Source: an uncultured Anaerolineaceae bacterium
GTDB lineage: Bacteria > Chloroflexota > Anaerolineae > Anaerolineales > E44-bin32
Assembly (NCBI GenBank): GCA_964388955.1
Contig: CAYMCO010000004.1
Coordinates: 2,487 to 66,486 of the forward strand
DNA length: 64,000 bases
Direction: 5' to 3'
Shown: in pieces, positions 2,656-25,766 of the stretch
Layout of the letters: each line of letters opens with the position of its first letter
Position numbering within the stretch: position 1 is the stretch's first letter
Notes under the pieces: model-generated
What the model saw: the letters and a program-made list of their open reading frames with translations, nothing else
Databases searched by the model: none
What the model was told of the DNA's origin: nothing
Program-made: the position numbers and the translations under genes

Positions 2656-4731
2656 TCAGCCGGACTCCGCCTGGCGCTCCTCTCTCTCCCGAGCGGCGAT
2701 GATCTCCTCGGCCACATGTGCGGGCACGACTTCGTATCCGCTCAGTTCCATCGAAAAGACACCCCGGCCGCCCGTCATGGAGCGCAGTTCACTCGTATAG
2801 CGCAGCACCTCAGCCAGGGGCACCTGGGCGGTCACGATCCCTCTCCCGTGCCGGCTGTCCATGCCCTGCACCCGCGCCCTCCGCGTGTTGAGATCCCCAA
2901 GCACATCCCCCATGCTGTCGTCGGGGACGGTGATGGTCATCGTCATGATGGGTTCCAACAGCACCGGCTTGGCCTCCCGGAAGGCGATCTTGAACGCCTC
3001 GCGACCGGCGATTTCGAATGCGATGGCTTTTGAGTCTACCGGATGCTCCTTGCCGTCTGTGACCGCCACCCGGACCTTCGTCACCGGGTAGCCCGCCACC
3101 ACGCCCTGCCGCATCACCCCGCGCACGCCTTTCTCGATGGCCGGCATGAAGCCTTGGGAGATCGCCCCCCCAAAGACCTGGTTTACAAATTCGAATTCTT
3201 CCTCTTCGAGCGGTTCGACCCGCATGTGAACCTCGGCGAACTGGCCTGCGCCGCCAGTTTGCTTCTTGTGCCGGTATTGAGAATTGCCCGTGCCAGTGAT
3301 GGTCTCCAAATAGGGCACTTTGGGGGTCTTGGTTTCCAACCCCAGCTGGAATTTCGCCTCCGCCTTGCGCACAGCGACGTCGATGTGCTGATCGCCGAGG
3401 CCCTGCAGCAGCGTCTCGCGCGTCCCACCTTCTTGCCGCCATGAGAGCGTCGGGTCTTCCTCGCATAACCGGGTCAGCGTGGGCCCCATTTTGGCCGAAT
3501 CCGCCTGGGTCTTGGGGGAAACCGCCACAGAGTACAGCGCGTTCGGATACTCCGGCATTGGGACCGTCAGCGGATGCCCCTTGTCCCCCAATGTGTCCCC
3601 CGTCCCGGTCTCGGCCAGTTTGCTCACCGCACCGATGTCCCCTGCATGCAGATGCTCGACGGGAATCTGCTCCTTGCCGCGCATCACATGCACGGTCCCC
3701 AGACGTTCCTCCTCCTCCTTGTTGTGGTTCCATACTCGACTATCCGAGTTGAGCACGCCGGAGAACACCCGCAGATAGGTGAGCTTCCCTACAAAGGGGT
3801 CTGCGGTGGTCTTCCACACATACGCGGCCAGCGGTCCCGCATCCGACGGTTCCAGCTCAACCTCGCCCTCCACTCCCCGTGCACTCACCGGCGGCGCCTT
3901 CATGGGCGACGGCAGCAGCTCCAACAGCGCCTCCATGACGGGCACAATTCCAACGGCTGCAGCCCCGGAAGCCACGAACACCGGCACAAATCGCCCTTCC
4001 GCGATGGAGAGCCGCAGGCCGCGCCCGACCTCTTCCTGGGTCAACTCCTCACCTTCCAGGTACTTCTCCAGCAATTCATCATCCCCCTCCGCCGCGGCCT
4101 CGACCAACTCCATGCGCGCCTCGGCAGCCCGCTCTGAGAATTCCTCCGGTATGGCCTCACGCGCTTCCCCCTCGGCCGGGCGGGCGGACATACTGAGCAA
4201 ATCGATTACGCCTTTGAAATCGCTCTTCTCGCCCCATGGAAGCTGAGCGGGGATGAAGGTCGCATCTGGATCCAACGTACGCACCGATTGCATCGCCCGT
4301 TCGAAGCTGGCTGTTTCCCGGTCCATCTTGCTCACGAGCACCAGGCGCGGCAGTTGGAAGGTATTGCAGTATCCCCATACCACCTCCGTGCCCACCTCCA
4401 CGCCGGCGACCGCGTCGATGACCACGATGGCCCCATCCACCACGCGCAAGGCGGAAATCACCTCTCCGATGAAGTCGGTATATCCCGGCGTATCCAGCAG
4501 GTTAATCTTGTGCTCCTTGAACTCCAGAGGCAGGATTGCCGTTGAAAGGGAAAGGCTGCGTCGGATTTCCTCCTCTTCGAAATCCGATACCGTATTCCCC
4601 TGCTCGACGCTGCCCATGCGGTTGACCACGCCGGTCACATAGAGCATCGCCTCGCCCATCGTGGTCTTTCCCCCGCCGCTGTGCGAGACCATGGCGACAT
4701 CGCGGAGGCTTTCGGTGGCATATTCTTTCAT
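2656..4731 (-). CDS. elongation factor G-like translational GTPase (EF-G paralog)
   Basis: G1 HSGGGKTT, G3 DTPGYTDF and G4 SKMD, then EF-G domains II-V (FVGKLTYLRVFSG, GGAGQFAEV, DSMGDVLGDLNTRRARVQGM). The ORF-track start 4863 is trimmed to ATG 4731 (MKEYATE), ~10 aa before the P-loop. The non-canonical P-loop suggests a paralog rather than the primary fusA. Confidence 0.88.
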   Translation of the reverse strand: MKEYATESLRDVAMVSHSGGGKTTMGEAMLYVTGVVNRMGSVEQGNTVSDFEEEEIRRSLSLSTAILPLEFKEHKINLLDTPGYTDFIGEVISALRVVDGAIVVIDAVAGVEVGTEVVWGYCNTFQLPRLVLVSKMDRETASFERAMQSVRTLDPDATFIPAQLPWGEKSDFKGVIDLLSMSARPAEGEAREAIPEEFSERAAEARMELVEAAAEGDDELLEKYLEGEELTQEEVGRGLRLSIAEGRFVPVFVASGAAAVGIVPVMEALLELLPSPMKAPPVSARGVEGEVELEPSDAGPLAAYVWKTTADPFVGKLTYLRVFSGVLNSDSRVWNHNKEEEERLGTVHVMRGKEQIPVEHLHAGDIGAVSKLAETGTGDTLGDKGHPLTVPMPEYPNALYSVAVSPKTQADSAKMGPTLTRLCEEDPTLSWRQEGGTRETLLQGLGDQHIDVAVRKAEAKFQLGLETKTPKVPYLETITGTGNSQYRHKKQTGGAGQFAEVHMRVEPLEEEEFEFVNQVFGGAISQGFMPAIEKGVRGVMRQGVVAGYPVTKVRVAVTDGKEHPVDSKAIAFEIAGREAFKIAFREAKPVLLEPIMTMTITVPDDSMGDVLGDLNTRRARVQGMDSRHGRGIVTAQVPLAEVLRYTSELRSMTGGRGVFSMELSGYEVVPAHVAEEIIAAREREERQAESG

Positions 4732-4824: not shown

Positions 4825-4849
4825 CCCCCCACCGAAGAGGAGTGCTCCG

Positions 4850-5335
4850 GTGACCATTATCAATCAATATTCGTTTGTCATTGTGGCCTTGCTTTGCATG
4901 GTCGGGCTGGGCCTATTCCTGCTTCGAGATGGAGCGGAGGCGAGCGACATCGTCGCGCTCGCGGCGCTTCTGATCGGATTTGGCATCGCCCATACCCTGC
5001 TGTCGCCGGGTCACAGCACAGAATCCGAGCTGCAAGGTGTTCACTCCTCCATTGGCTCCGGCCGGGCGGTGCTGCTCGAATACCAAAGCCCGTATTGAAT
5101 TGCATGCATGTCAATGAGGCCTGTCGTGGACAGGATCGCACGCCAGAATGCCGGGGGCCTGGAGGTCATACGGCTGAATGCCCAAGACCCGATAGGCGCG
5201 GCCCTCAGCGAAGAATATGATCTGCGGGTGACCCCCACCTTTCTGCTCTTTGACCCGCGTGGGACGGAGATTCTGCGCGCTTTCGGTGTCATAGATCCCG
5301 CCGAAGTCTCCCAAGCCCTGGGAGAGGCGCAGTGA
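4850..5335 (+). CDS. membrane-anchored thioredoxin-like protein with in-frame TGA at the CxxC first-Cys position (candidate selenoprotein, UxxC; alternatively a nonsense pseudogene)
   Basis: ORFs 4850-5098 and 5108-5335 share one frame. Read through, the junction is AVLLEYQSPY-[TGA 5096-5098]-IAC-MSMRPVVDRIA, matching the Trx W-C-G-P-C context. VTPTFLLFD (cis-Pro region) lies downstream. Two N-terminal TM helices. Hairpin CCTGTC-GTG-GACAGG at 5120-5134. Confidence 0.55.
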
Positions 5336-5898
5336 GGCGGCTCTTCTTCGAGTTGTACTACCTGCTGGGGAATGCACCCTGGGACACCGGAATCTCGCCT
5401 CCTGAATTGCTCTCTTTCCTTCGAGACGCCGACCCGGGTCGAGCTTTGGATCTCGGATGCGGCACAGGAACCAACGCCATTACCATGGCCAAGCGCGGAT
5501 GGCAGGTGGTGGGCGTGGATTTTTCCACGCTCGCCATCTGGGCGGCTCGGCGGAAGGCCCGCCATCAGGGGCTCGAAATCGAATTCTTGAGTCGCGATGT
5601 CACAGAACTGGACGATCTCGAGGGACCCTTCGATCTTACGCTGGATATCGGCTGTCTCCATGGCCTGCACCCCGAGAAACGGCTGGATTACGCCCAGGGT
5701 GTCCGTCGGCTGGCCTCGCCCGGCGGATACTACCTGCTCTATTCATTCGTCGTGCAGGAGCCGAATTCGACCAGCAAGTGGCCGACCGCGGATGAGATCG
5801 ACGCGCTTTTCAGCGGTGCGTTCGAATTGCTCTCGACCGAATACGGGCGGGATCGGCAGCGCACCTCTGCCTGGTTTAAGTTTCAGCGCCGAGCATGA
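5332..5898 (+). CDS. class I SAM-dependent methyltransferase (TPMT/TehB-like)
   Basis: Motif I LDLGCGTGTNAITMAKRG and post-I VVGVDFS, preceded by the N-terminal APWDTGISPPEL pattern typical of the TPMT/TehB group. GTG start overlaps the stop of the upstream Trx-like ORF. Confidence 0.8.
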   Translation: MRRLFFELYYLLGNAPWDTGISPPELLSFLRDADPGRALDLGCGTGTNAITMAKRGWQVVGVDFSTLAIWAARRKARHQGLEIEFLSRDVTELDDLEGPFDLTLDIGCLHGLHPEKRLDYAQGVRRLASPGGYYLLYSFVVQEPNSTSKWPTADEIDALFSGAFELLSTEYGRDRQRTSAWFKFQRRA

Positions 5899-6818
5899 TG
5901 ACCAGGGTGCTGTTCCTGTTCATCGATGGCCTCGGCCTCGGTGCCGACGACCCCACCCTTAACCCGTTGATGCGGGCGAATATGCCCACGGTCCGCTCCT
6001 TGTTGGATGGAAAAGCCCTGACCGCTGCTTCGGCCCCTCTGCACACAGAATGGGCGTCCTTGATCTCCGTAGACGCTTGCCTGGGGATTGACGGTCGCCC
6101 CCAGTCCGCCACCGGCCAAGCCACGTTGCTCTCCGGACGCAACGTCCCCAGGGAGATCGGGGAGCATTTCGGACCGAAGCCAAACCAGGCCATTAGAAAT
6201 GTCCTGGATCAGGATAACCTGTTCCGCAATGTGCTCGAAGGCGGTGGGCAAGCCGCCCTGCTGAACGCCTATCCCCCAGCATACTTCGCGGCTATCCGCA
6301 GCGGTAGGCGGCTGCATTCCGCCATCACCTATGCCGCCTCAAGCGCTGGCATACCCATTCGCACGGCGAAGCATCTGGAAGCTGGCCAGGCGCTCTCTGC
6401 GGATTTTACCGGTGAAGGCTGGGCTGCTCGCTCGGATTTCCCCCCCGCGCCGGTATACACTCCCCAGGAAGCTGGAGGGCTGCTGGCGGACCTCGCGATG
6501 GAATACCAGCTCGCCTGGTTCGATTACTGGCTGTTGGATTACGCCGGCCATCGGGGGAGCACGGCCGAGGCCACGGCCTTGCTGGAGACCTGTGACGGCG
6601 TTCTTGCGGGGCTGCTGGAAACCCCCCAGAGCTACTCGGGACTGATCGTGCTGAGCTCCGATCACGGCAATGTCGAGGACATGGGGCGCCGAGGGCACAC
6701 ACTCAATCCTGTGCCGGCGCTCCTGATCGGCCCGAAATCCCTGCGCCTCGAGTTCACAGCCCACTTGAAGGACCTCACCGGATTTGCGCATCCGATCTTG
6801 CATGCCATATTTGCCTAG
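5895..6818 (+). CDS. alkaline-phosphatase-superfamily metalloenzyme (cofactor-independent phosphoglycerate mutase/phosphopentomutase-like)
   Basis: N-terminal metal-ligand motif FLFIDGLGLG and C-terminal LSSDHGN...RRGHT motif. ATGA overlap with the upstream methyltransferase. Confidence 0.7.
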   Translation: MMTRVLFLFIDGLGLGADDPTLNPLMRANMPTVRSLLDGKALTAASAPLHTEWASLISVDACLGIDGRPQSATGQATLLSGRNVPREIGEHFGPKPNQAIRNVLDQDNLFRNVLEGGGQAALLNAYPPAYFAAIRSGRRLHSAITYAASSAGIPIRTAKHLEAGQALSADFTGEGWAARSDFPPAPVYTPQEAGGLLADLAMEYQLAWFDYWLLDYAGHRGSTAEATALLETCDGVLAGLLETPQSYSGLIVLSSDHGNVEDMGRRGHTLNPVPALLIGPKSLRLEFTAHLKDLTGFAHPILHAIFA

Positions 6819-8143: not shown

Positions 8144-8416
8144 TCACAGACTTTCAAATCGATCCACACGGAGGACAAACACCGTCGCCCGCCCATGCCC
8201 TGAGAGGTCGGGGGTGCGGCTTTTCTCCCGGATGATCTCCAGCGCACGATCGACCTTTTCCTCTTCGGTACCCACAAAGAGTGTTGTGTTCCCGCGCCGG
8301 AAGAATCCCCCCGTTGAAGCCACGCGTGTGACGCGGTACTCCTCCGCCAGCATGGCTGCAACCACCTCTTCTACCCCTTCATCGCTCAAGATGATGATCA
8401 TCAGTTTCATGCTCAT
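8144..8416 (-). CDS. PII-like cyclic-di-AMP receptor family protein (DarA/PstA/YaaQ, DUF970-like)
   Basis: The 90-aa product matches B. subtilis DarA (YaaQ) as I recall it: RVTRVASTGGFFRRGNTTLFVG and GRATVFVLRVDRFE. Its start codon abuts the stop of the antiporter gene. Confidence 0.75.
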   Translation of the reverse strand: MSMKLMIIILSDEGVEEVVAAMLAEEYRVTRVASTGGFFRRGNTTLFVGTEEEKVDRALEIIREKSRTPDLSGHGRATVFVLRVDRFESL

Positions 8417-10299
8417 ATGGCCTCGTATCGCTCAACATCAAATGCGAACACAGTCGCCCCCTTCACCTGCACGGGGATCGGATCGATCAACGGTACGGGC
8501 ACACCCTCGGGCATCGTCGACAGGTATTCAACCCGGCTTCGGGCTGTGCGCTCGAGAGTCTCAATTGCCTCCGGCAAGCGCCCCTGGGGGATTCCGATCA
8601 GCACCAGGTGGTTGGCGCGCCTGAGGAACGCCCCTCGGCTCTGCACCTGGGTGGAACGGATGCCCCTCATGGCGAGGGCGTTGATGGCCGATTCAAGATC
8701 GCGCGATTGCAGCACCACCATGATGAGCTTGTCCACTCCACCGGCACTGTCCCCTGGCTCCGCCAGATCGGTCCAAGTGCCAAAGTCGGATTCCAGGGCC
8801 GCATCCACCTCCGTGATCAGATCTTCGTATGATCCCTGAGAGATCGCCCCGGTGCGCCGCAACGAAGCCAGGGTGCTGCGTTGGGCCCGCAGCATCTCCC
8901 GCCGGGAGGTGATCAATTCGTCGTTCTCCAACTCCGGCGCACCGTCCAGCGCCTCCCGAACCCCTACCGTGAGCGCATCGATCCGATGCTGAATCCGCGG
9001 CCGCACCTTCTCCCAAATGTGCGATGAGATCAAGCCGTCATCGTGCAGTCTCGAGAGATGTTGGAGGCCGGCGCGCGCCGCGATGGCCCGGGCGTGTCTC
9101 CGCTCGTACTCGATCTGCTCCTCCGTGCGGCCCACCAACTGCAACTTGTCCACCAGCCACTCAAGGGACATCCCCTGGCCGATCATGGTGAACAGGACCA
9201 CACCGAAGGTCATCACAATCACTGTGCTGCGCTCCGCACCGAGCGCTTCCGGCAGGCTCAACGCCAAGGCGAGGGCGATGGCCCCTCGCAAGCCGCCCCA
9301 GAAAAGAACATGCCGCCACCGCTCGGGAATAGGGCGCCCCAACCGGGATAGCAGATACACGTTCAGCCCCCTGCTCACCAATACCGCCAAGATGCCCCAC
9401 AGGGTTGGCCCCAAGGTCTGCAGCATCCCCCCAATATCCATCTCCAAGCCGATCATCAAGAAGACGGCTGAATTGGCCAGAAAGGCGACATATTCCCAGA
9501 AGTTGTGCACTACGATCCTGGTCGTGGGCGACATCTCATTCCTGCTGAGGTTGCCACTCACGAGACCGGCGCACACCACCGCCAACACGCCACTGAGGTG
9601 GAACTGTTCGGCAAGCAGGTACGATCCGAACGCCAAGACGGTCGTCAATGTGGTCTCGACGAGATAATCGTCGATGTGGCCGATCAGCCGCGTGGTAAGC
9701 CACCCCAAGGCGACCCCCACGATTACCCCCCCTCCCGCCACCCGCAGAAACTCGAACAAGGCGCCGACGATGTCCAACTGCCCGATTTGAACGGCGGCCA
9801 GCGTGAGGCTGAAGATCACGATCGCGGTGCCATCGTTGAACAGGCTCTCGGCCTCCATCAGCACCTCGAGCCGTTTGGGAACGCCCAACTTGCGGAAGAT
9901 GGCCACCACGGAGACCGGATCCGTTGCTCCCACCAAGGCGCCGAAAACCAACGCCACAGCAGTCGAGAGCTTGGCGCCCCACGCCACGATGCCGCCTGTA
10001 ACGACCGTTGTCAGCACCACCCCCGGCACCGCAAACAGGAAGATCGTGCCCAGATTCTTGCGGAGTTTGTTCCAATCGATTTGAAAGGCGGCTTCGAAGA
10101 CCAAGGGCGGGATGAAAAGGAAGAGGATCAGCTCAGAGGTGACGCTTAGCTCGAGCGAAGAGCGCAAGGAGAGCGCCAGTCCCACCAAGACCAGGGCGAC
10201 GGTGTAGTGAATGCGCAGTCGCCGAACGACGATGGCGACGACGGAGACGATAAGCAGCAGTTCTAGGACCAGGCTTTCCACCCGGATTAGGCTTTCCAT
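8413..10299 (-). CDS. CPA1-type Na+(K+)/H+ antiporter with C-terminal DarA/YaaQ-like domain
   Basis: About 400 aa of TM helices with CPA1/NhaP-like signatures (LFNDGTAIVIF, GGLRGAIALALALS), then a long helical cytoplasmic linker. The last ~106 aa (nt 8416-8733) repeat the DarA pattern: KLIMVVLQSRD...QSRGAFLRRANHLVLIG...KGATVFAFDVERYE. Confidence 0.85.
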   Translation of the reverse strand: MESLIRVESLVLELLLIVSVVAIVVRRLRIHYTVALVLVGLALSLRSSLELSVTSELILFLFIPPLVFEAAFQIDWNKLRKNLGTIFLFAVPGVVLTTVVTGGIVAWGAKLSTAVALVFGALVGATDPVSVVAIFRKLGVPKRLEVLMEAESLFNDGTAIVIFSLTLAAVQIGQLDIVGALFEFLRVAGGGVIVGVALGWLTTRLIGHIDDYLVETTLTTVLAFGSYLLAEQFHLSGVLAVVCAGLVSGNLSRNEMSPTTRIVVHNFWEYVAFLANSAVFLMIGLEMDIGGMLQTLGPTLWGILAVLVSRGLNVYLLSRLGRPIPERWRHVLFWGGLRGAIALALALSLPEALGAERSTVIVMTFGVVLFTMIGQGMSLEWLVDKLQLVGRTEEQIEYERRHARAIAARAGLQHLSRLHDDGLISSHIWEKVRPRIQHRIDALTVGVREALDGAPELENDELITSRREMLRAQRSTLASLRRTGAISQGSYEDLITEVDAALESDFGTWTDLAEPGDSAGGVDKLIMVVLQSRDLESAINALAMRGIRSTQVQSRGAFLRRANHLVLIGIPQGRLPEAIETLERTARSRVEYLSTMPEGVPVPLIDPIPVQVKGATVFAFDVERYEAI

Positions 10300-10314
10300 T
10301 CTTGGTCCCTCAAT

Positions 10315-17184: not shown

Positions 17185-19404
17185 CTACAGCAACGGCATT
17201 TGAGAATCCTGGCTCTCCGGTGGATCCAAGGCCAACCGGTCGGGCAGATTCTCACGCCTCAACGTGCTGTCCTCCGCCAGCCGCCGAACGTGCCGATACT
17301 TGAGCACCCGCACGCCATCTCTGAGCCATGCGCGCACCCGCCCGTCTCGCCGCGCTTTCTCCGCCACCAAGGAGGCTCGGCCGCCAGGCATCACCAAAGT
17401 GAGTCCATCCCGCTCTCCCTCTTCGAGCGCGCTTCCAAACGTTGCGGTTTCCTGCACCCGGAAGCGGTAGGCGCGCCCGCCAGATGGAGAGTTCCACACC
17501 AGCTCTCCCCCCCGCTCGACGTCGAACCCCAAGCGATCCCCCATGGCAACCAGCAGTCGGTGCATCTCTCGAGCATCCGCCTCCCGAACCGCGCGTTGAT
17601 CCTGTTCCCTGAGACGCCAAATGCCTCGTTCAGGATCCTCCTCAGCGTAGGAACTCAAGCACGCCTGCACGAAGCGCCGCTCGGGGGTCAGCATACCCCG
17701 CATTTGGGCGCAAATCGCGCCGTCCACGTGGGGGAAGGTCACCTCATTCTGCTGGCGCAACAGTGACAGCACTGTGCGCTCCACCCGGTCCGCCAGAGGC
17801 AGTGGGGCGCCCCTTGGTCTTGAAAGCCAATAGATTCCCCTCTCAGCCTCCACGTTCTGATCCATCCGCTTGAAGATCCCCCTATCAGAGAGCGTGGCTT
17901 CAAGCAGGCCGCCGATGTTGGCGATGGTTTGACTGCCATCTTGCTGCCACAGGGCCGAGATCCCCCTGCTTCCAGCCAGACTCGACCACGCGGCGGCATG
18001 CAGCACTGCGTAGGGCGTTGGCTCGCCTCGCCGGTGAAGCGTCTCCACCATTGCGGACTGCAACTGATCCCCGACGTCCTTCCCGTCGGAGGATCCCTGA
18101 CCGCCGGCCGCCTGCCAGCGCACGGCGGCGGTCTCGGTATCCGGGCGGAATGCCCGCCCGGTCATCGCAAATCCAGCCCGCTCAAAGCCGGCGACTGCGG
18201 CCGCGAGAAACCCCGGATCCGCCTCAACGATGAGCGACAGTACAGGGGCATCGCGACCCATGGCTGATCGCACCTGATCCAAGACCGTGCGAAAAGCCCC
18301 CGCTGTCCAAGCCCAATCGTACCGCCGACGGGCGAGTGAGGCCTTGATCGCCGCGGCCGCCTCCCGGCCCCAAAGCCAGGCGGACCACAAGACGGACAGG
18401 CTCCAATAGGCAGGGTTCGGGCGGGGCACGGTCGTCACCACTCGCTCGATTTCCCCCGGACGCAATTCCAAGACAAGATCGCGGACAGAACCCGGGAAGA
18501 CCATCACCCCCCCCGGATCAGGGGACTCCCCCCGGGACCATTCGCCCAGTGGAATGCCTGACCCCGGCAACGCCCAATCCTCGACAGCCGCCTCCATCGC
18601 CCGCCATACATTCATCTCACGGTATCGGGATGAGGCGATCAGTTGCCTGGGTCTTTGGCGGCCCTCTGCGTGGGACCAGAGCGCATTCGCGGCGTCCAAG
18701 GCCGAGAGGATCAAAGCGCGTGCCGCTGCGAGAGGTCTTCCGCTCAGATCCACTTGATCGAGTTTGTTGATTACAGTCATCAAGGCATACAGCGCTCTGA
18801 CCGGATACACCGCCAACGCCGCCTCCGCATGGCGCCGGTAGGGATCACCCGGAGGGGCAACTGCGTCCAGCGCAAGCGCGTGCTGGAGACCGCGCCCGGC
18901 ATAGGATATGGCGCGCTGGCTATCCTCAAGCGAGGTCGGCTCCTCACCGCTGTGCTGGCACTGCGGGCAGCGATATCCTTTCAGGACCGGACGCTCCAAC
19001 TCCCGGTCCCATATGAAGTAATCTCCAATCACTTGTGCGCCGCAGCGTGCGCACACCGTCTGATATAGATCCAGCACGTATGGCTCCAGCCGGCCACCAT
19101 CTTTGCGCAGCGAGGCCAGGGCCGCCAGCGCGGATTGAAGCTCCTCTGCCCGAAACGGGTTCAGCGTATGCTGCAGAATGAAACGAGTGATGGGGTTGTT
19201 CACCGCCACCAGAACCGAACACCCCGACCGGGCTGCCTCGCGCACCAGCCTGGGTGAGGCGCCGAAGGGGTCCAGGAGCGAGGCTCCCTCGATCCCCGCA
19301 TCCCGAAGCAGACTCGCCACCGACCCCTCCATCAGCGGCGGAAGGAAGCGATGCAGCGGCTCAAGCTGCTGCGGTGGAAGTCCACAGGGGAAAGGAATGT
19401 CCAT
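17185..19404 (-). CDS. COG1743-like Zn-ribbon DNA-methylase homolog with degenerate catalytic motifs
   Basis: ATG 19404 chosen because the ORF-track start 19824 runs into the divergent M20 gene. LLDPFGASPRLVREAARSG...VNNPITRFIL resembles the motif I region. CARCG...CPQCQ forms a zinc ribbon. The motif IV position reads TTVPRPNPAYWSLSVLWSAWLWG instead of DPPY...FFYVWL. Confidence 0.55.
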   Translation of the reverse strand: MDIPFPCGLPPQQLEPLHRFLPPLMEGSVASLLRDAGIEGASLLDPFGASPRLVREAARSGCSVLVAVNNPITRFILQHTLNPFRAEELQSALAALASLRKDGGRLEPYVLDLYQTVCARCGAQVIGDYFIWDRELERPVLKGYRCPQCQHSGEEPTSLEDSQRAISYAGRGLQHALALDAVAPPGDPYRRHAEAALAVYPVRALYALMTVINKLDQVDLSGRPLAAARALILSALDAANALWSHAEGRQRPRQLIASSRYREMNVWRAMEAAVEDWALPGSGIPLGEWSRGESPDPGGVMVFPGSVRDLVLELRPGEIERVVTTVPRPNPAYWSLSVLWSAWLWGREAAAAIKASLARRRYDWAWTAGAFRTVLDQVRSAMGRDAPVLSLIVEADPGFLAAAVAGFERAGFAMTGRAFRPDTETAAVRWQAAGGQGSSDGKDVGDQLQSAMVETLHRRGEPTPYAVLHAAAWSSLAGSRGISALWQQDGSQTIANIGGLLEATLSDRGIFKRMDQNVEAERGIYWLSRPRGAPLPLADRVERTVLSLLRQQNEVTFPHVDGAICAQMRGMLTPERRFVQACLSSYAEEDPERGIWRLREQDQRAVREADAREMHRLLVAMGDRLGFDVERGGELVWNSPSGGRAYRFRVQETATFGSALEEGERDGLTLVMPGGRASLVAEKARRDGRVRAWLRDGVRVLKYRHVRRLAEDSTLRRENLPDRLALDPPESQDSQMPLL

Positions 19405-19535
19405 TGCCTTCAGTATACGGCAAGTCAAAGGCGGCTGGGAATGCGCCCTCGCCGGATGTACCTCACGGTATACTCTGAGACGTCCCACTTTGACCCCGGA
19501 GATGAGCCGCGAAATCCACAATAGGAGCATCCCGC

Positions 19536-20678
19536 ATGCCTGCCATCCCGATCGCTGAATTTGAGAGCCGCATGCCCGACCTGCTGGGATTGCTGCGGCA
19601 AATGGTAGAGATCGAGTCCCCGACCACGGATAAGGCCGCGGTGGACAGGCTCGGATTGTGGTTTGGGGACCAAATGACGCGCATGGGCGCGGAAGTGCGC
19701 CGCTATGGACAGAGCGCTGTGGGCGACCACTTGCTCGGCCGCTGGGGAGAGGGCGAGGGAGGGATTCTGATCCTGGGGCATATGGATACCGTGCATCCTT
19801 TGGGCTCTGCAGCGAGAATGCCATGGCGTGAGGAAGGTGGGCGCATTTGCGGCCCCGGGGTCTTGGATATGAAGGCCGGCCTCGCCTTGTCGCTCATCGC
19901 GCTGCGAGCGCTGGGGGATGCCGGCACGCTGCCAAACCAGCGGATCAGCCTGCTATGCACCTCGGACGAGGAAACCGGCAGCGTCACATCACGCGCCCTC
20001 ATCGAAGATCTGGCCCTTGCGCATTCTCTAGTCCTGGTCGTCGAGCCTGCCTTGCCCGACGGATCGCTCAAGACCTGGCGCAAGGGGATCGGAGAGTTCC
20101 ATCTGCGAGCCCGCGGTCGGGCGTCGCACGCGGGGGGCGACCCTGAAAACGGTGTCAACGCGATTATCGAAATGAGCCACCAAATCCGGCGCCTGGTGCA
20201 GGTGGCGGACGATCAACTGGGCACGACGGTCAATGTGGGAGTAATCCGGGGCGGCGTGCGTCCCAACGTCGTGCCCGAATCGTGCACCATGAAAGTGGAT
20301 ATCCGCATTAGGGATCCGCAAGAGCAGCTGCGCGTTGAGCAAGAACTGGCGGGCCTGAGCCCCGCGCTCGAAGGCGCGGAGCTCACGGTCTCTGGCGGAT
20401 GGAACCGCCCACCGATGCCGCGGTCCCCGGTGATCGCCGAAGCCTTCGCCAGAGCGAAAACCATCGCCGCCGGCCTGGGCATCGCGCTCGGCGAGGGTGG
20501 CACGGGGGGAGGCTCCGATGCTAATTTCGTCGCGCCGCTGGACGTGCCGCTGTTGGATGGCCTGGGGGCCATCGGGGGAGGAGCGCATTCGGCGCGCGAA
20601 TACGTCATCCGGGATGAACTACCCTCCCGGGCGGCCCTGCTGGCCGCGGTGATCAGCCAATGGCAATCAGCGGTTTAG
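19536..20678 (+). CDS. M20-family metallopeptidase (carboxypeptidase G2/ArgE/DapE-like)
   Basis: Motifs GHMDTV, LDMKAG, SDEETGS and GGGSDANF. Confidence 0.85.
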   Translation: MPAIPIAEFESRMPDLLGLLRQMVEIESPTTDKAAVDRLGLWFGDQMTRMGAEVRRYGQSAVGDHLLGRWGEGEGGILILGHMDTVHPLGSAARMPWREEGGRICGPGVLDMKAGLALSLIALRALGDAGTLPNQRISLLCTSDEETGSVTSRALIEDLALAHSLVLVVEPALPDGSLKTWRKGIGEFHLRARGRASHAGGDPENGVNAIIEMSHQIRRLVQVADDQLGTTVNVGVIRGGVRPNVVPESCTMKVDIRIRDPQEQLRVEQELAGLSPALEGAELTVSGGWNRPPMPRSPVIAEAFARAKTIAAGLGIALGEGGTGGGSDANFVAPLDVPLLDGLGAIGGGAHSAREYVIRDELPSRAALLAAVISQWQSAV

Positions 20679-21929
20679 CGCCGCCTGCAGGTCCGAGAAC
20701 TTATCCATCGATGCCATCAGGCGCAGAAACTGCCTCGGATTCTGCAGCCGATCCCACAGGCTGCGGACGGCCGCCCCGACCGGATCCTCACCGGCCGCGC
20801 CGCCGGGCTCATCGGCATATGCCCCGTAGAAAGCGAAGTACGCCTGGTTGAGCTTTCGGATGTGATAGCCATGCTCCCAGAACACCTGGCGGCGGGCCTC
20901 CATATATGATTCAGCCTCCGCTATCTCGCCCAGCGCCAGAAGGCGGTCCACAGTGACGCGCGTTTTGCGCATCTCAGCCCGGAAATCAAAAGTGGGCCCC
21001 TCGCTTTCCTGCGACTCCTCCGATTCAGATGGGGGTGGCGGCAGGTAAGCAGGGTAGTATCGCCCCAAGGCCATGCGACCGAGTTCCCGCCCCAAGAGTG
21101 AGGCCACCGTCTCATTCATGGTGCGCAATTCCGGGCTGGTGCTGTAATTGAGACCAAGCGGATGGAACGCCAGATAATTGTGCACCCACTCGTGGACGAT
21201 GGTCTCGACAACCCAGCTGACAGCGCTGGTTTCCTGAATCATGGTCGGATAGGTTCCCAACCCTCCGATGGGCACCACCAGCGCCGATAGACCGGTCCCT
21301 CTTTCCACCTGCTCCTCGAGCCTGATCTGCTCTCCGACGCTCAGCCCTGGGTTCAGCTGCACATTGGCCTCCTGACGGATCACATCCCGGGGGGAGACAA
21401 TCAGCGCCAGCGGGGTGCGGCTGAAATGAAAGGCGACTGGTGGAAGCACCTCCCCGGCGAAATCCAGGCCGGCATCCGCCAATATGACGGAGACTTGCTC
21501 AGCCAGCACGCTTTCTGCTGTGGATTGAATCTGGGATAGGCGCCGCTGGACATCGGACAGCTTTGCCTGGGTGCCCTGCGCCTCGGCTTCCGGGTTCTCG
21601 ATGGCGGGATCGCCAAAAATCTCATTCACACGGGCTTCCAGCGTGGAGGCCTCGCGGGCCAGACCAAAATACTCAAGCACCAGAGACGTGCGGGCCTCGG
21701 GGGCCAGATGGCCGCCGGCCCGCAAAGTGTATTGGCTGAATTTGATCGCCAGCGCGTCTGCGGTCCAGCCCAAGAATTCAAATTCGTGGGCGCGCGTATA
21801 CCGTTGCACCCGCTGGCTGGCCTCCACCATCGGCACCCCGCTGGCGGCCAAAGAGACCGTCACGACGACCAGCACCAGCCCGCGCCACAGCCAAACGAGG
21901 ATAGTTCGCGCCATGTCGCCCACTCTCAT
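20667..21929 (-). CDS. membrane-anchored putative zinc metalloprotease-like protein (HExxH)
   Basis: N-terminal TM anchor ILVWLWRGLVLVVVTVSLAA and a single HExxH (IVHEWVHNY). Otherwise unassigned. The 3' end overlaps the convergent M20 gene by 12 nt. Confidence 0.6.
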   Translation of the reverse strand: MRVGDMARTILVWLWRGLVLVVVTVSLAASGVPMVEASQRVQRYTRAHEFEFLGWTADALAIKFSQYTLRAGGHLAPEARTSLVLEYFGLAREASTLEARVNEIFGDPAIENPEAEAQGTQAKLSDVQRRLSQIQSTAESVLAEQVSVILADAGLDFAGEVLPPVAFHFSRTPLALIVSPRDVIRQEANVQLNPGLSVGEQIRLEEQVERGTGLSALVVPIGGLGTYPTMIQETSAVSWVVETIVHEWVHNYLAFHPLGLNYSTSPELRTMNETVASLLGRELGRMALGRYYPAYLPPPPSESEESQESEGPTFDFRAEMRKTRVTVDRLLALGEIAEAESYMEARRQVFWEHGYHIRKLNQAYFAFYGAYADEPGGAAGEDPVGAAVRSLWDRLQNPRQFLRLMASMDKFSDLQAALNR

Positions 21930-21979
21930 GCGAGCATAATACCAAGCGGTTTCGCCTTGTCAATGCCGCCCCCCGCCTA

Positions 21980-24576: not shown

Positions 24577-25766
24577 AGCAGACCGGCTCACCGGTCGTTG
24601 GAAGAGATATGTTTGAACGCGTGCGCGGAACGCTTTTCCCCCCAATGAGCTCCGATGCCATCCGGTTGCGGACTCGGGTGGCGCATTTCGTCCTTCCCAT
24701 ATTCTACTTCTTGCTGGTGTTGTGGCTCGTCGAGGGAATAACCCTGGGCCGGTTCGCGCTGAGCCTGGGATATGAAACCAGCCTCGCCCTGGTTTCTATG
24801 GGAATCCTGTCGTCGCTCGGGGTACTGACCATATGGCTCGTGCGCAGAAATCGCATCGCCAGCGCTGGACATGTGCTCGGAATCGCCTACTTCGGCTTCG
24901 CTGTCCTCCAGAGCTTCGACCTGCCCCAAAGCACCAGTCTCATGAGCTTCGGTTTTTACGCCGCCATCATGTCGGTCGGCGCTATCGTCGGCGGGCTGGC
25001 GGCGTATTATTACGCCGCTGCGGCCATCTTGTCGATGGTCGCCATTTGGCTGCAGAACCCAGCCCTGACATCAAATCCATTTGATCAAGCCACAGGAATC
25101 CCCTTCTTGGTGAGCCAGGGGGCCCTTTTTCTCGGATTGGCGGCGCTGCTGCACTTCCTCTCCATCCAGATCCAGAACACCCTGGCCAAGATGCGGGACC
25201 AGGCGAACGAAATGAAGCAACTGGCGTTGACCGATCCGCTCACCGATCTCTCCAACCGCCGCCATCTGCTCAGCCGACTCGAGCACGAGCACCAGCGCTC
25301 ACGCCGGTATCAGCGCTCGCTGAGTCTGATCTTCATTGACTTGGATGATTTCAAAGAAGTCAACGATCGCTTCGGACATCTGGTCGGGGATGACGTGCTG
25401 CGGGGGATCGCCCAGTGCCTGCGTTCCTCCATCCGATCAACAGACCTGCTGGCGCGCGTGGGAGGCGATGAATTCGCAATCCTGCTGCCGGAGACTCGGT
25501 CCGATGGCGCTCTTCGCGTGGTTGATCGGCTGCGGGAATCTCTGGCGGAATACTCAGCGCGCGCCAATCCTTCCCTCCCTCAACTGACCTTCTGCGCCGG
25601 TGTCGCCGAGCTCACACCCGCGGACGGATCCATCGACGAAATGCTCGCTCGCGCGGATCGCCTGCAGTACATGGCCAAGAGTGCGGGCAAGAACTCAACC
25701 AAGACCGAGCGCGATCTGCCAAGGGAGACACCGGTGGATGAGGGCCCTTCGCGCGCACAGTCCTGA
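24573..25766 (+). CDS. membrane-bound diguanylate cyclase (GGDEF domain)
   Basis: About 6 N-terminal TM helices, then DPLTDLSNRR and RVGGDEFAILL. GTGA overlap with the fabI stop (ATG 24609 is an alternative start). Confidence 0.85.
   Translation: MKQTGSPVVGRDMFERVRGTLFPPMSSDAIRLRTRVAHFVLPIFYFLLVLWLVEGITLGRFALSLGYETSLALVSMGILSSLGVLTIWLVRRNRIASAGHVLGIAYFGFAVLQSFDLPQSTSLMSFGFYAAIMSVGAIVGGLAAYYYAAAAILSMVAIWLQNPALTSNPFDQATGIPFLVSQGALFLGLAALLHFLSIQIQNTLAKMRDQANEMKQLALTDPLTDLSNRRHLLSRLEHEHQRSRRYQRSLSLIFIDLDDFKEVNDRFGHLVGDDVLRGIAQCLRSSIRSTDLLARVGGDEFAILLPETRSDGALRVVDRLRESLAEYSARANPSLPQLTFCAGVAELTPADGSIDEMLARADRLQYMAKSAGKNSTKTERDLPRETPVDEGPSRAQS

Follow-up and report, generated by a model that had tools for sequence, protein, structure and literature searches.

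We analyzed a 64-kb stretch of DNA from an uncultured Anaerolineaceae bacterium (hereafter, the window) and found that a TGA triplet at 5096-5098, inside a gene at 4850-5335, is very probably decoded as the active-site selenocysteine (Sec) of a membrane-anchored thioredoxin. A first-pass annotation of this DNA had proposed such a selenoprotein, missed by open reading frame (ORF) calling, and its reading of the locus was borne out by the present analysis. The ORFs 4850-5098 and 5108-5335 share one frame in the translation of 4850-5335, and the gap between them consists of the TGA and the codons ATT GCA TGC. The start codon is GTG 4850, and the frame from this GTG to the terminal TGA is broken only by TGA 5096-5098. 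Reading through the triplet gives the junction ...AVLLEYQSPY-[TGA]-IAC-MSMRPVVDRIA... and the active-site motif QSPY-U-IAC. With UGA read as Sec at translation, 4850-5335 would yield one 161-residue protein, in which two N-terminal membrane helices precede a classical thioredoxin domain and selenocysteine is the attacking active-site residue.

Conservation of the in-frame TGA at the catalytic cysteine position

Scanning one genome for each species gave 247 relatives, and the 80 best served as comparison loci. All of these loci are from metagenome-assembled genomes of Anaerolineales/Chloroflexota, and their products are 35-52% identical to the window protein. Together with the window they make a family of 81 sequences, comprising 65 TGA forms (64 loci and the window) and 16 Cys forms. 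At the codon aligned with the window TGA, orthologues carry TGA in 64/80 loci and TGC or TGT in 16/80. The first Cys of the CxxC motif stands at this position in the 16 genomic Cys forms and in 129/129 database homologues, and the nine full-length homologues (159-163 amino acids (aa)) found in the initial protein search all contain LLExQSPYC(L/I)AC. When the family profile was compared with solved classical thioredoxins (E = 5.8e-15), sPYClaC fell on PWCGPC and tPtF on the cis-proline motif IPTL. Alignment with homologues and with solved thioredoxins thus places TGA 5096-5098 where the CxxC of thioredoxins has its nucleophilic first Cys, and because the profile puts sPYClaC on PWCGPC, Sec would replace the attacking Cys. 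On a rough neighbour-joining tree the TGA and Cys states are interspersed, and about 10 switches between them are needed.

The same triplet could in principle mark a pseudogene, in which a nonsense mutation from TGC or TGT to TGA leaves an 82-residue membrane peptide or no product, an alternative that the first-pass annotation had itself named. TGA is one mutation away from TGC, the closest relative found among the loci (L001) has TGC at the Sec position, and gene callers report two fragments. However, 64 species share this TGA, and a further stop within 69 codons 3' of it occurs in 0/64 TGA forms. Divergence 3' of the UGA among TGA forms was 0.325 at first, 0.253 at second and 0.576 at third codon positions, a pattern in the aligned sequences showing that the downstream frame is open and under protein-coding (purifying) selection. 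In addition, the covariation of the hairpin described below is confined to TGA forms. A read or assembly error at 5098 is contradicted by the presence of TGA in contigs assembled independently from four runs, which are sediment metagenomes from two studies. One of these four assemblies (run X5) represents a slightly diverged strain that keeps the TGA, and both of its changes upstream are synonymous, which again argues against decay of the gene. Taken together, a pseudogene has a vanishingly small probability.

The variant strain of run X5 differs from the window at four positions, 4997, 5083, 5282 and 5295. Two of the differences are synonymous and lie 5' of the UGA, and the others are F145V and D149G. 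The latter changes an Asp that is otherwise invariant; it lies 31 nucleotides (nt) from a contig end and may be an artefact of assembly.

We also considered that the locus encodes two polypeptides, a small two-helix membrane protein that stops at the TGA, and a C-terminal thioredoxin fragment with a translation start of its own. The window does have an ATG at 5108, shortly after the TGA, and gene callers report a 69-aa product from GTG 5126 with a Thioredoxin_2 hit. Inspection of the sequence, however, revealed no Shine-Dalgarno (SD)-like sequence before ATG 5108, and no start codon of the downstream half is conserved among the 65 TGA forms: ATG at codon +4 after the TGA is found in 27/65 and is missing in 38/65, and 18/65 have no ATG, GTG or TTG at any of codons +1 to +7. 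Such a C-terminal fragment would also be without strand beta-1 and the entire active site, and the Cys forms are single 160-aa proteins. Two separate products are therefore highly improbable.

Genome-wide reassignment of TGA to a sense codon in this lineage would account for the in-frame TGA, which is also the sole observation in its favour. Against it, the ordinary terminator of the thioredoxin gene is itself TGA in 64/81 family members, the window included. A raw stop-to-stop screen of the window for in-frame TGAs gave 145 noisy candidates, and codon-usage scoring over the whole 64 kb left no second convincing case besides the thioredoxin TGA. Reassignment is accordingly given almost no weight. 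One candidate, at 25301 on the minus strand, passed the codon-usage score and was rejected as a shadow frame overlapping a longer plus-strand ORF. Because of these comparative TGA, start-codon, terminator and assembly results, we regard a pseudogene, a sequencing error, two genes and code reassignment as excluded.

A covarying hairpin 3' of the UGA

The hairpin noted in the first-pass annotation, CCTGTC-GTG-GACAGG at 5120-5134, starts 24 nt past the T of the TGA and is present in the minimum-free-energy (MFE) fold of 5090-5170. Two further stem pairs, which are found in many relatives, are a G.U and a G.A mismatch in the window. The hairpin nucleotides double as codons for the start of helix alpha-1, (K/R)-P-(I/V)-V-D-(G/R/E). 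Its conservation was examined in two alignments, one of the 65 TGA forms and one of the 16 Cys forms, both gapless over 72 nt, and the stem was found to covary in the TGA forms and to have decayed in the Cys forms. In TGA forms, pair 40-48, which joins the first base of the Ile/Val codon to the Asp wobble base, is G-C in 34 and A-U in 30, with 0 mismatches and 0 wobble pairs, and pair 39-49, which joins the Pro wobble base to the first base of the next codon, is C-G in 56, U-A in 7 and G-C in 1, again with 0 mismatches. By parsimony, about 8 independent double changes occurred at pair 40-48 and about 4 at pair 39-49. The helix cells of the 65 TGA forms are paired in 88.5%, compared with 23-43% in slid registers, and the observed covariation was reached by 0/500 shuffles. 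Unguided RNAalifold recovered the upper four pairs of the hairpin. In Cys forms, by contrast, the helix is paired in 60.2%, which is the shuffle level, and mean local folding energy is -8.7 kcal/mol in TGA forms vs -4.8 kcal/mol in Cys forms (p = 9e-5). The encoded residues follow the same division: Sec forms are restricted to P-(I/V)-V-D-(G/R/E/A), whereas Cys forms diversify to T/S at the I/V position and to A, S, T, D or Q after the Asp. These results are what would be expected if the mRNA hairpin serves as a bacterial selenocysteine insertion sequence (SECIS) element, which would recruit the elongation factor SelB carrying Sec-tRNA(Sec).

A second helix directly after the UGA, 5099-5103 with 5111-5115, was also tried; its pairing is 69.7% in TGA forms vs 61.3% in Cys forms, and it was rejected as not specific to Sec. 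Four Cys forms (L043:6232-6303, L047:4600-4671, L049:6232-6303 and L073:933-1004) carry a fully or largely paired relic hairpin. L043, L049 and L073 have the codon TGT instead of TGC, and TGA is found in their sisters L037 and L079; these Cys forms look like recent Sec-to-Cys replacements.

The published consensus for bacterial SECIS elements specifies a loop of 3-9 nt with G in the first two loop positions, an upper stem of 4-16 bp, a UGA-to-loop distance of 16-37 nt and an MFE <= -7.5 kcal/mol (PMC13188914 Fig. 2). The window hairpin, with a GUG loop of 3 nt, a 6-bp stem, a UGA-to-loop distance of 27 nt and a 19-nt fold of -8.0 kcal/mol, agrees with this consensus in all four respects (PMC13188914), and the energy limit is passed by 74% of TGA forms when a 23-nt segment is folded. 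Like the bSECISearch model and the SECIS of Escherichia coli fdhF, it is a hairpin that lies within the ORF directly after the UGA and has a small apical loop starting with GU, and its spacing, stem length and energy lie inside the ranges of the model. It differs from the model in being very small, with a stem of 6-8 bp and a loop whose 3 nt are the minimum that the model allows, and from both in being wholly embedded in the codons of a conserved helix. The distance between UGA and hairpin exceeds that in E. coli fdhF, and a bulged U is not apparent.

Thioredoxin fold and predicted membrane anchor

The read-through product matched the Pfam families Thioredoxin (PF00085, 29.2 bits, cut-off 23.5, residues 67-158) and Thioredoxin_2 (PF13098, 27.2 bits, cut-off 27), and both matches span the TGA. 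A Cys homologue 53% identical to the window protein (P0001) was modelled by AlphaFold in its stead, and the helices were mapped onto the window by alignment. The model, with a predicted local distance difference test (pLDDT) score of 90.6, shows a thioredoxin fold and, at the N-terminus, two long helices; the two membrane helices of the first-pass annotation are thereby predicted with high confidence in this homologue. The best matches of the model in the PDB were thioredoxins (TM-scores 0.74-0.81, normalised to target) and the DsbD gamma domain. From profile and model together, the family has the hallmarks of the thioredoxin superfamily: a CxxC-type motif where helix alpha-1 begins, a cis-Pro loop and the beta-alpha-beta-alpha-beta-beta-alpha fold. 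Scores against the canonical TrxA/TrxC equivalogs were far under their cut-offs (TIGR01068, 37.4 vs 96.8; NF006898, 29.0 vs 138; NF008229, 33.6 vs 125), as was the score against the DsbE subfamily (21.3 vs 123), and NCBI models of thioredoxin-like selenoproteins, such as SaoT, the HUIPC motif family and VPGUxxT, gave no match at E <= 0.01. Because the equivalog scores lie so far under the cut-offs and no specific selenoprotein model matches, we regard the family as a distinct subfamily and not as a TrxA/TrxC orthologue.

Probable selenocysteine insertion and its weighing

Several observations weigh against Sec decoding or against parts of the model built on it. With E. coli proteins as tblastn queries, nothing below E = 0.5 was found for selA, selB or selD in the 64-kb window and the 80 neighbourhoods, and ARAGORN found no tRNA-Sec in the same sequences. 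The stop-to-stop and codon-usage screens detected no other selenoprotein gene in the window. When 45 nt of the window sequence are folded, an alternative structure (-10.7 kcal/mol) without the hairpin is favoured, whereas the 81-nt fold includes it. Rfam SECIS models had no match, either in the whole window at gathering thresholds or in 5060-5200 at E <= 10; given how heterogeneous these elements are in bacteria, the lack of a match is to be expected. Finally, the mature product would be a membrane-tethered selenol/thiol-disulfide oxidoreductase whose catalytic domain points outward, and for this orientation the positive-inside rule is the one basis: family-wide, the loop between the helices has a mean of 2.6 K+R and the N-terminal tail 0.2, and the flank past helix 2 is acidic, which suggests that the thioredoxin domain faces the outside of the cell.

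For Sec machinery in the source organism, the case draws on published reports for the order. The Sec-specific elongation factor SelB has been reported from Anaerolineales single-cell genomes and from Anaerolinea thermophila, the latter having SelB but no annotated Sec dehydrogenase (PMC4959059), and tRNA-Sec has been reported in Chloroflexi (PMC5389517). These reports support a Sec-decoding capacity in this lineage.

It is also conceivable that the hairpin drives recoding of the UGA with a residue other than Sec. Cys might be inserted by a tRNA-Sec-like opal-suppressor tRNA(Cys) acting together with a SelB paralogue, a route that has been proposed for some deltaproteobacteria; alternatively, the hairpin might stimulate near-cognate read-through. 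A selC* tRNA(Cys) whose anticodon is UCA and a selB* have indeed been described (PMC5389517), and the present sequence data show recoding and a SECIS-like element, from which the inserted residue cannot be identified. On the other hand, selC*/selB* were reported from deltaproteobacteria and possibly Nitrospirae, not from Chloroflexi, and that system co-occurs with a complete Sec system (PMC5389517); nothing relevant to a UGA-to-Cys system in Chloroflexi was found in PMC5424206. Moreover, Cys codons are available and are used by 16 relatives, so that keeping a costly UGA and hairpin over about 64 species would be hard to explain, and ordinary read-through would not select for a GU-initial loop at SECIS-like spacing. 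We consider insertion of another residue quite improbable, and selenium insertion the far better account of the UGA.

Public annotation and relation to known selenoproteins

As had been anticipated, the gene is missed by ORF calling. In public gene calls on the contigs of this organism it is split into two fragments, one of 82 aa without any Pfam match and one of 69 aa that matches Thioredoxin_2. The 82-aa N-terminal piece of the window is on public record, and NCBI lists the 83-aa N-terminal pieces of relatives under the name 'hypothetical protein'. The 69-aa fragment is called at 5126-5335 (L083:2845-3054), and its start, GTG 5126, lies in the apical loop of the hairpin; this start is an annotation artefact arising from a Val codon in the hairpin loop. 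The 129 full-length relatives in the databases are all Cys forms, called "thioredoxin family protein" or similar, and full-length Sec forms account for 0/129. The consequence is a systematic annotation error across dozens of public Anaerolineales genomes, in which the gene appears as a truncated "hypothetical protein" and a stray fragment.

No earlier description of this subfamily, or of thioredoxin selenoproteins in Chloroflexota, was found in the searchable literature, and a 2026 review of prokaryotic selenoproteomes does not mention Chloroflexota. The mechanism and the kind of protein are already known, since UxxC selenoproteins of the thioredoxin (PF00085) and thiol:disulfide interchange (PF13098) families are well established (PMC13188914). 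The data give good support to a new, order-wide subfamily of thioredoxin-fold selenoproteins in Chloroflexota. Its members are confined, as far as sampled, to Anaerolineales/Chloroflexota. One locus labelled 'Methanosarcinales archaeon' (L011, JAIWHF010000059.1) is a typical Anaerolineales locus whose motif region is near-identical to those of L007 and L012, and one Cys-form protein (P0086) is labelled Bacteroidota; both contigs are probably mis-binned.

Among the nearest known counterparts is selenoprotein Trx (PF00085, UxxC), for example WP_010956703.1 of Treponema denticola, which is listed as experimentally verified (PMC13188914 Table 1). Both share the thioredoxin fold, Sec in place of the attacking Cys of CxxC, a Cys two residues on, the existence of Cys homologues, and a SECIS hairpin, putative here, in the coding sequence just 3' of the UGA. 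The present protein differs in its two-helix N-terminal membrane anchor, in its motif QSPY-U-(I/L/V/M)-(A/G)-C instead of W-U-G-P-C, in scoring far under the thioredoxin equivalog cut-off (37.4 vs 96.8 bits), and in its conserved operon with a methyltransferase and its distribution among Anaerolineales/Chloroflexota. Thiol:disulfide interchange and thiol-disulfide isomerase-like selenoproteins (PF13098 or cd02966, UxxC) are predicted families (PMC13188914 Table 1). The window protein resembles them in the PF13098 match, in UxxC and probably in being a membrane-tethered extracytoplasmic oxidoreductase. By sequence and fold, however, its nearest solved proteins are classical thioredoxins and DsbD gamma rather than those of the TlpA/ResA/DsbE type. 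The DsbD gamma domain (PDB 1UC7, 2FWG) is among the best fold matches (TM-score about 0.65) and is likewise a thioredoxin-like domain on membrane helices, and there is a weak NCBIfam match to the DsbD C-terminal region; in contrast to DsbD, the present protein has neither a DsbD membrane core nor an alpha domain, is anchored by two helices only, and has an active site with a putative Sec.

The chief value of the finding lies in annotation and in the evolution of Sec/Cys exchange and of SECIS elements. The roughly 10 Sec/Cys switches, some of them with relic hairpins, provide a natural experiment on the gain and loss of a minimal SECIS within the codons of a conserved helix, and for biochemical comparison the family offers one membrane thioredoxin in corresponding Sec and Cys versions.

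Gene neighbourhood

The positions of the gene, its elements and its neighbours are listed in Table 1. Directly 3' of the thioredoxin gene, as the first-pass annotation had stated, lies a methyltransferase gene, and this arrangement is found in 74/80 loci. The PF01676 metalloenzyme gene is downstream in 67/80 loci, and the gene for a paralogue of elongation factor G (EF-G) is upstream on the opposite strand in 75/80. The gene order is common to Sec and Cys forms alike. The overlaps GTGA (5332-5335) and ATGA (5895-5898) likely join the selenoprotein, methyltransferase and PF01676 genes into one translationally coupled operon. The EF-G paralogue was considered as a candidate SelB and rejected, as it has the full EF-G set with domains III, IV and C.

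Table 1 Features of the thioredoxin locus in the window
Feature	Position	Strand	Remarks
Probable selenoprotein coding sequence	4850..5335	+	161 codons and terminal TGA; Sec predicted at codon 83; single frame
SD-like GAGGAG	4837..4842	+	7 nt 5' of the GTG start; read off the sequence
Predicted membrane helix 1, about residues 8-26	4871..4927	+	Helix 9-27 of the P0001 AlphaFold model; hydrophobic sequence
Predicted membrane helix 2, about residues 31-51	4940..5002	+	Helix 32-52 of the P0001 model
UGA, very probable selenocysteine codon	5096..5098	+	Position of the first Cys of CxxC
TGC, resolving Cys of UxxC	5105..5107	+	Invariant Cys in 81/81 family sequences and 129 database proteins
Putative bacterial SECIS hairpin	5118..5136	+	Core stem 5120-5125 with 5129-5134; apical loop GUG 5126-5128
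TPTF, thioredoxin cis-proline motif	5231..5242	+	Aligned to IPTL of thioredoxins; T128, P129 and T130 invariant
Ordinary TGA terminator of the thioredoxin gene	5333..5335	+	Overlaps the GTG start of the next gene (GTGA)
Class I S-adenosylmethionine methyltransferase (TPMT/TehB-like)	5332..5898	+	Methyltransf_25 1.4e-20; probably translationally coupled
Metalloenzyme-superfamily protein (PF01676)	5895..6818	+	Start overlaps the methyltransferase stop (ATGA)
EF-G paralogue	2656..4731	-	Divergently transcribed; all EF-G domains

The methyltransferase matched Pfam TPMT (52.9 bits, cut-off 26) and TehB (35.5 bits, cut-off 20.4), the generic Methyltransf_25 scoring higher, and it remained under the cut-offs of the NCBIfam TehB equivalogs (43.7 vs 303 and 40.4 vs 218). 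The closest solved structures, 8GDU and 6MRO, are uncharacterised methyltransferases. A selenium theme is suggestive, yet a functional link between thioredoxin and methyltransferase stays speculation because the pairing is independent of Sec, being kept equally in Cys forms. We give a low probability to a broader proposal in which the Sec/Cys membrane thioredoxin, the methyltransferase and the PF01676 protein form one membrane-associated pathway and the thioredoxin is perhaps the main selenoprotein of Anaerolineales. In such a pathway, the selenol/thiol thioredoxin may reduce or capture a chalcogen or thiol substrate that is then methylated by the methyltransferase, and the role may be, for example, in the handling of selenium, tellurium or arsenic. 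If this were true, the need for its main selenoprotein would keep the Sec machinery alive, which would explain the presence of SelB in A. thermophila without an annotated Sec-containing dehydrogenase (PMC4959059).

Elsewhere in the window, 8416-10314 on the minus strand encodes an Na+/H+ exchanger (PF00999) fused to a C-terminal cyclic-di-AMP receptor domain (PF06153), and two long minus-strand ORFs at 17188-19893 and 20670-21959, of 902 and 430 aa, are without a Pfam match at E <= 1e-5.

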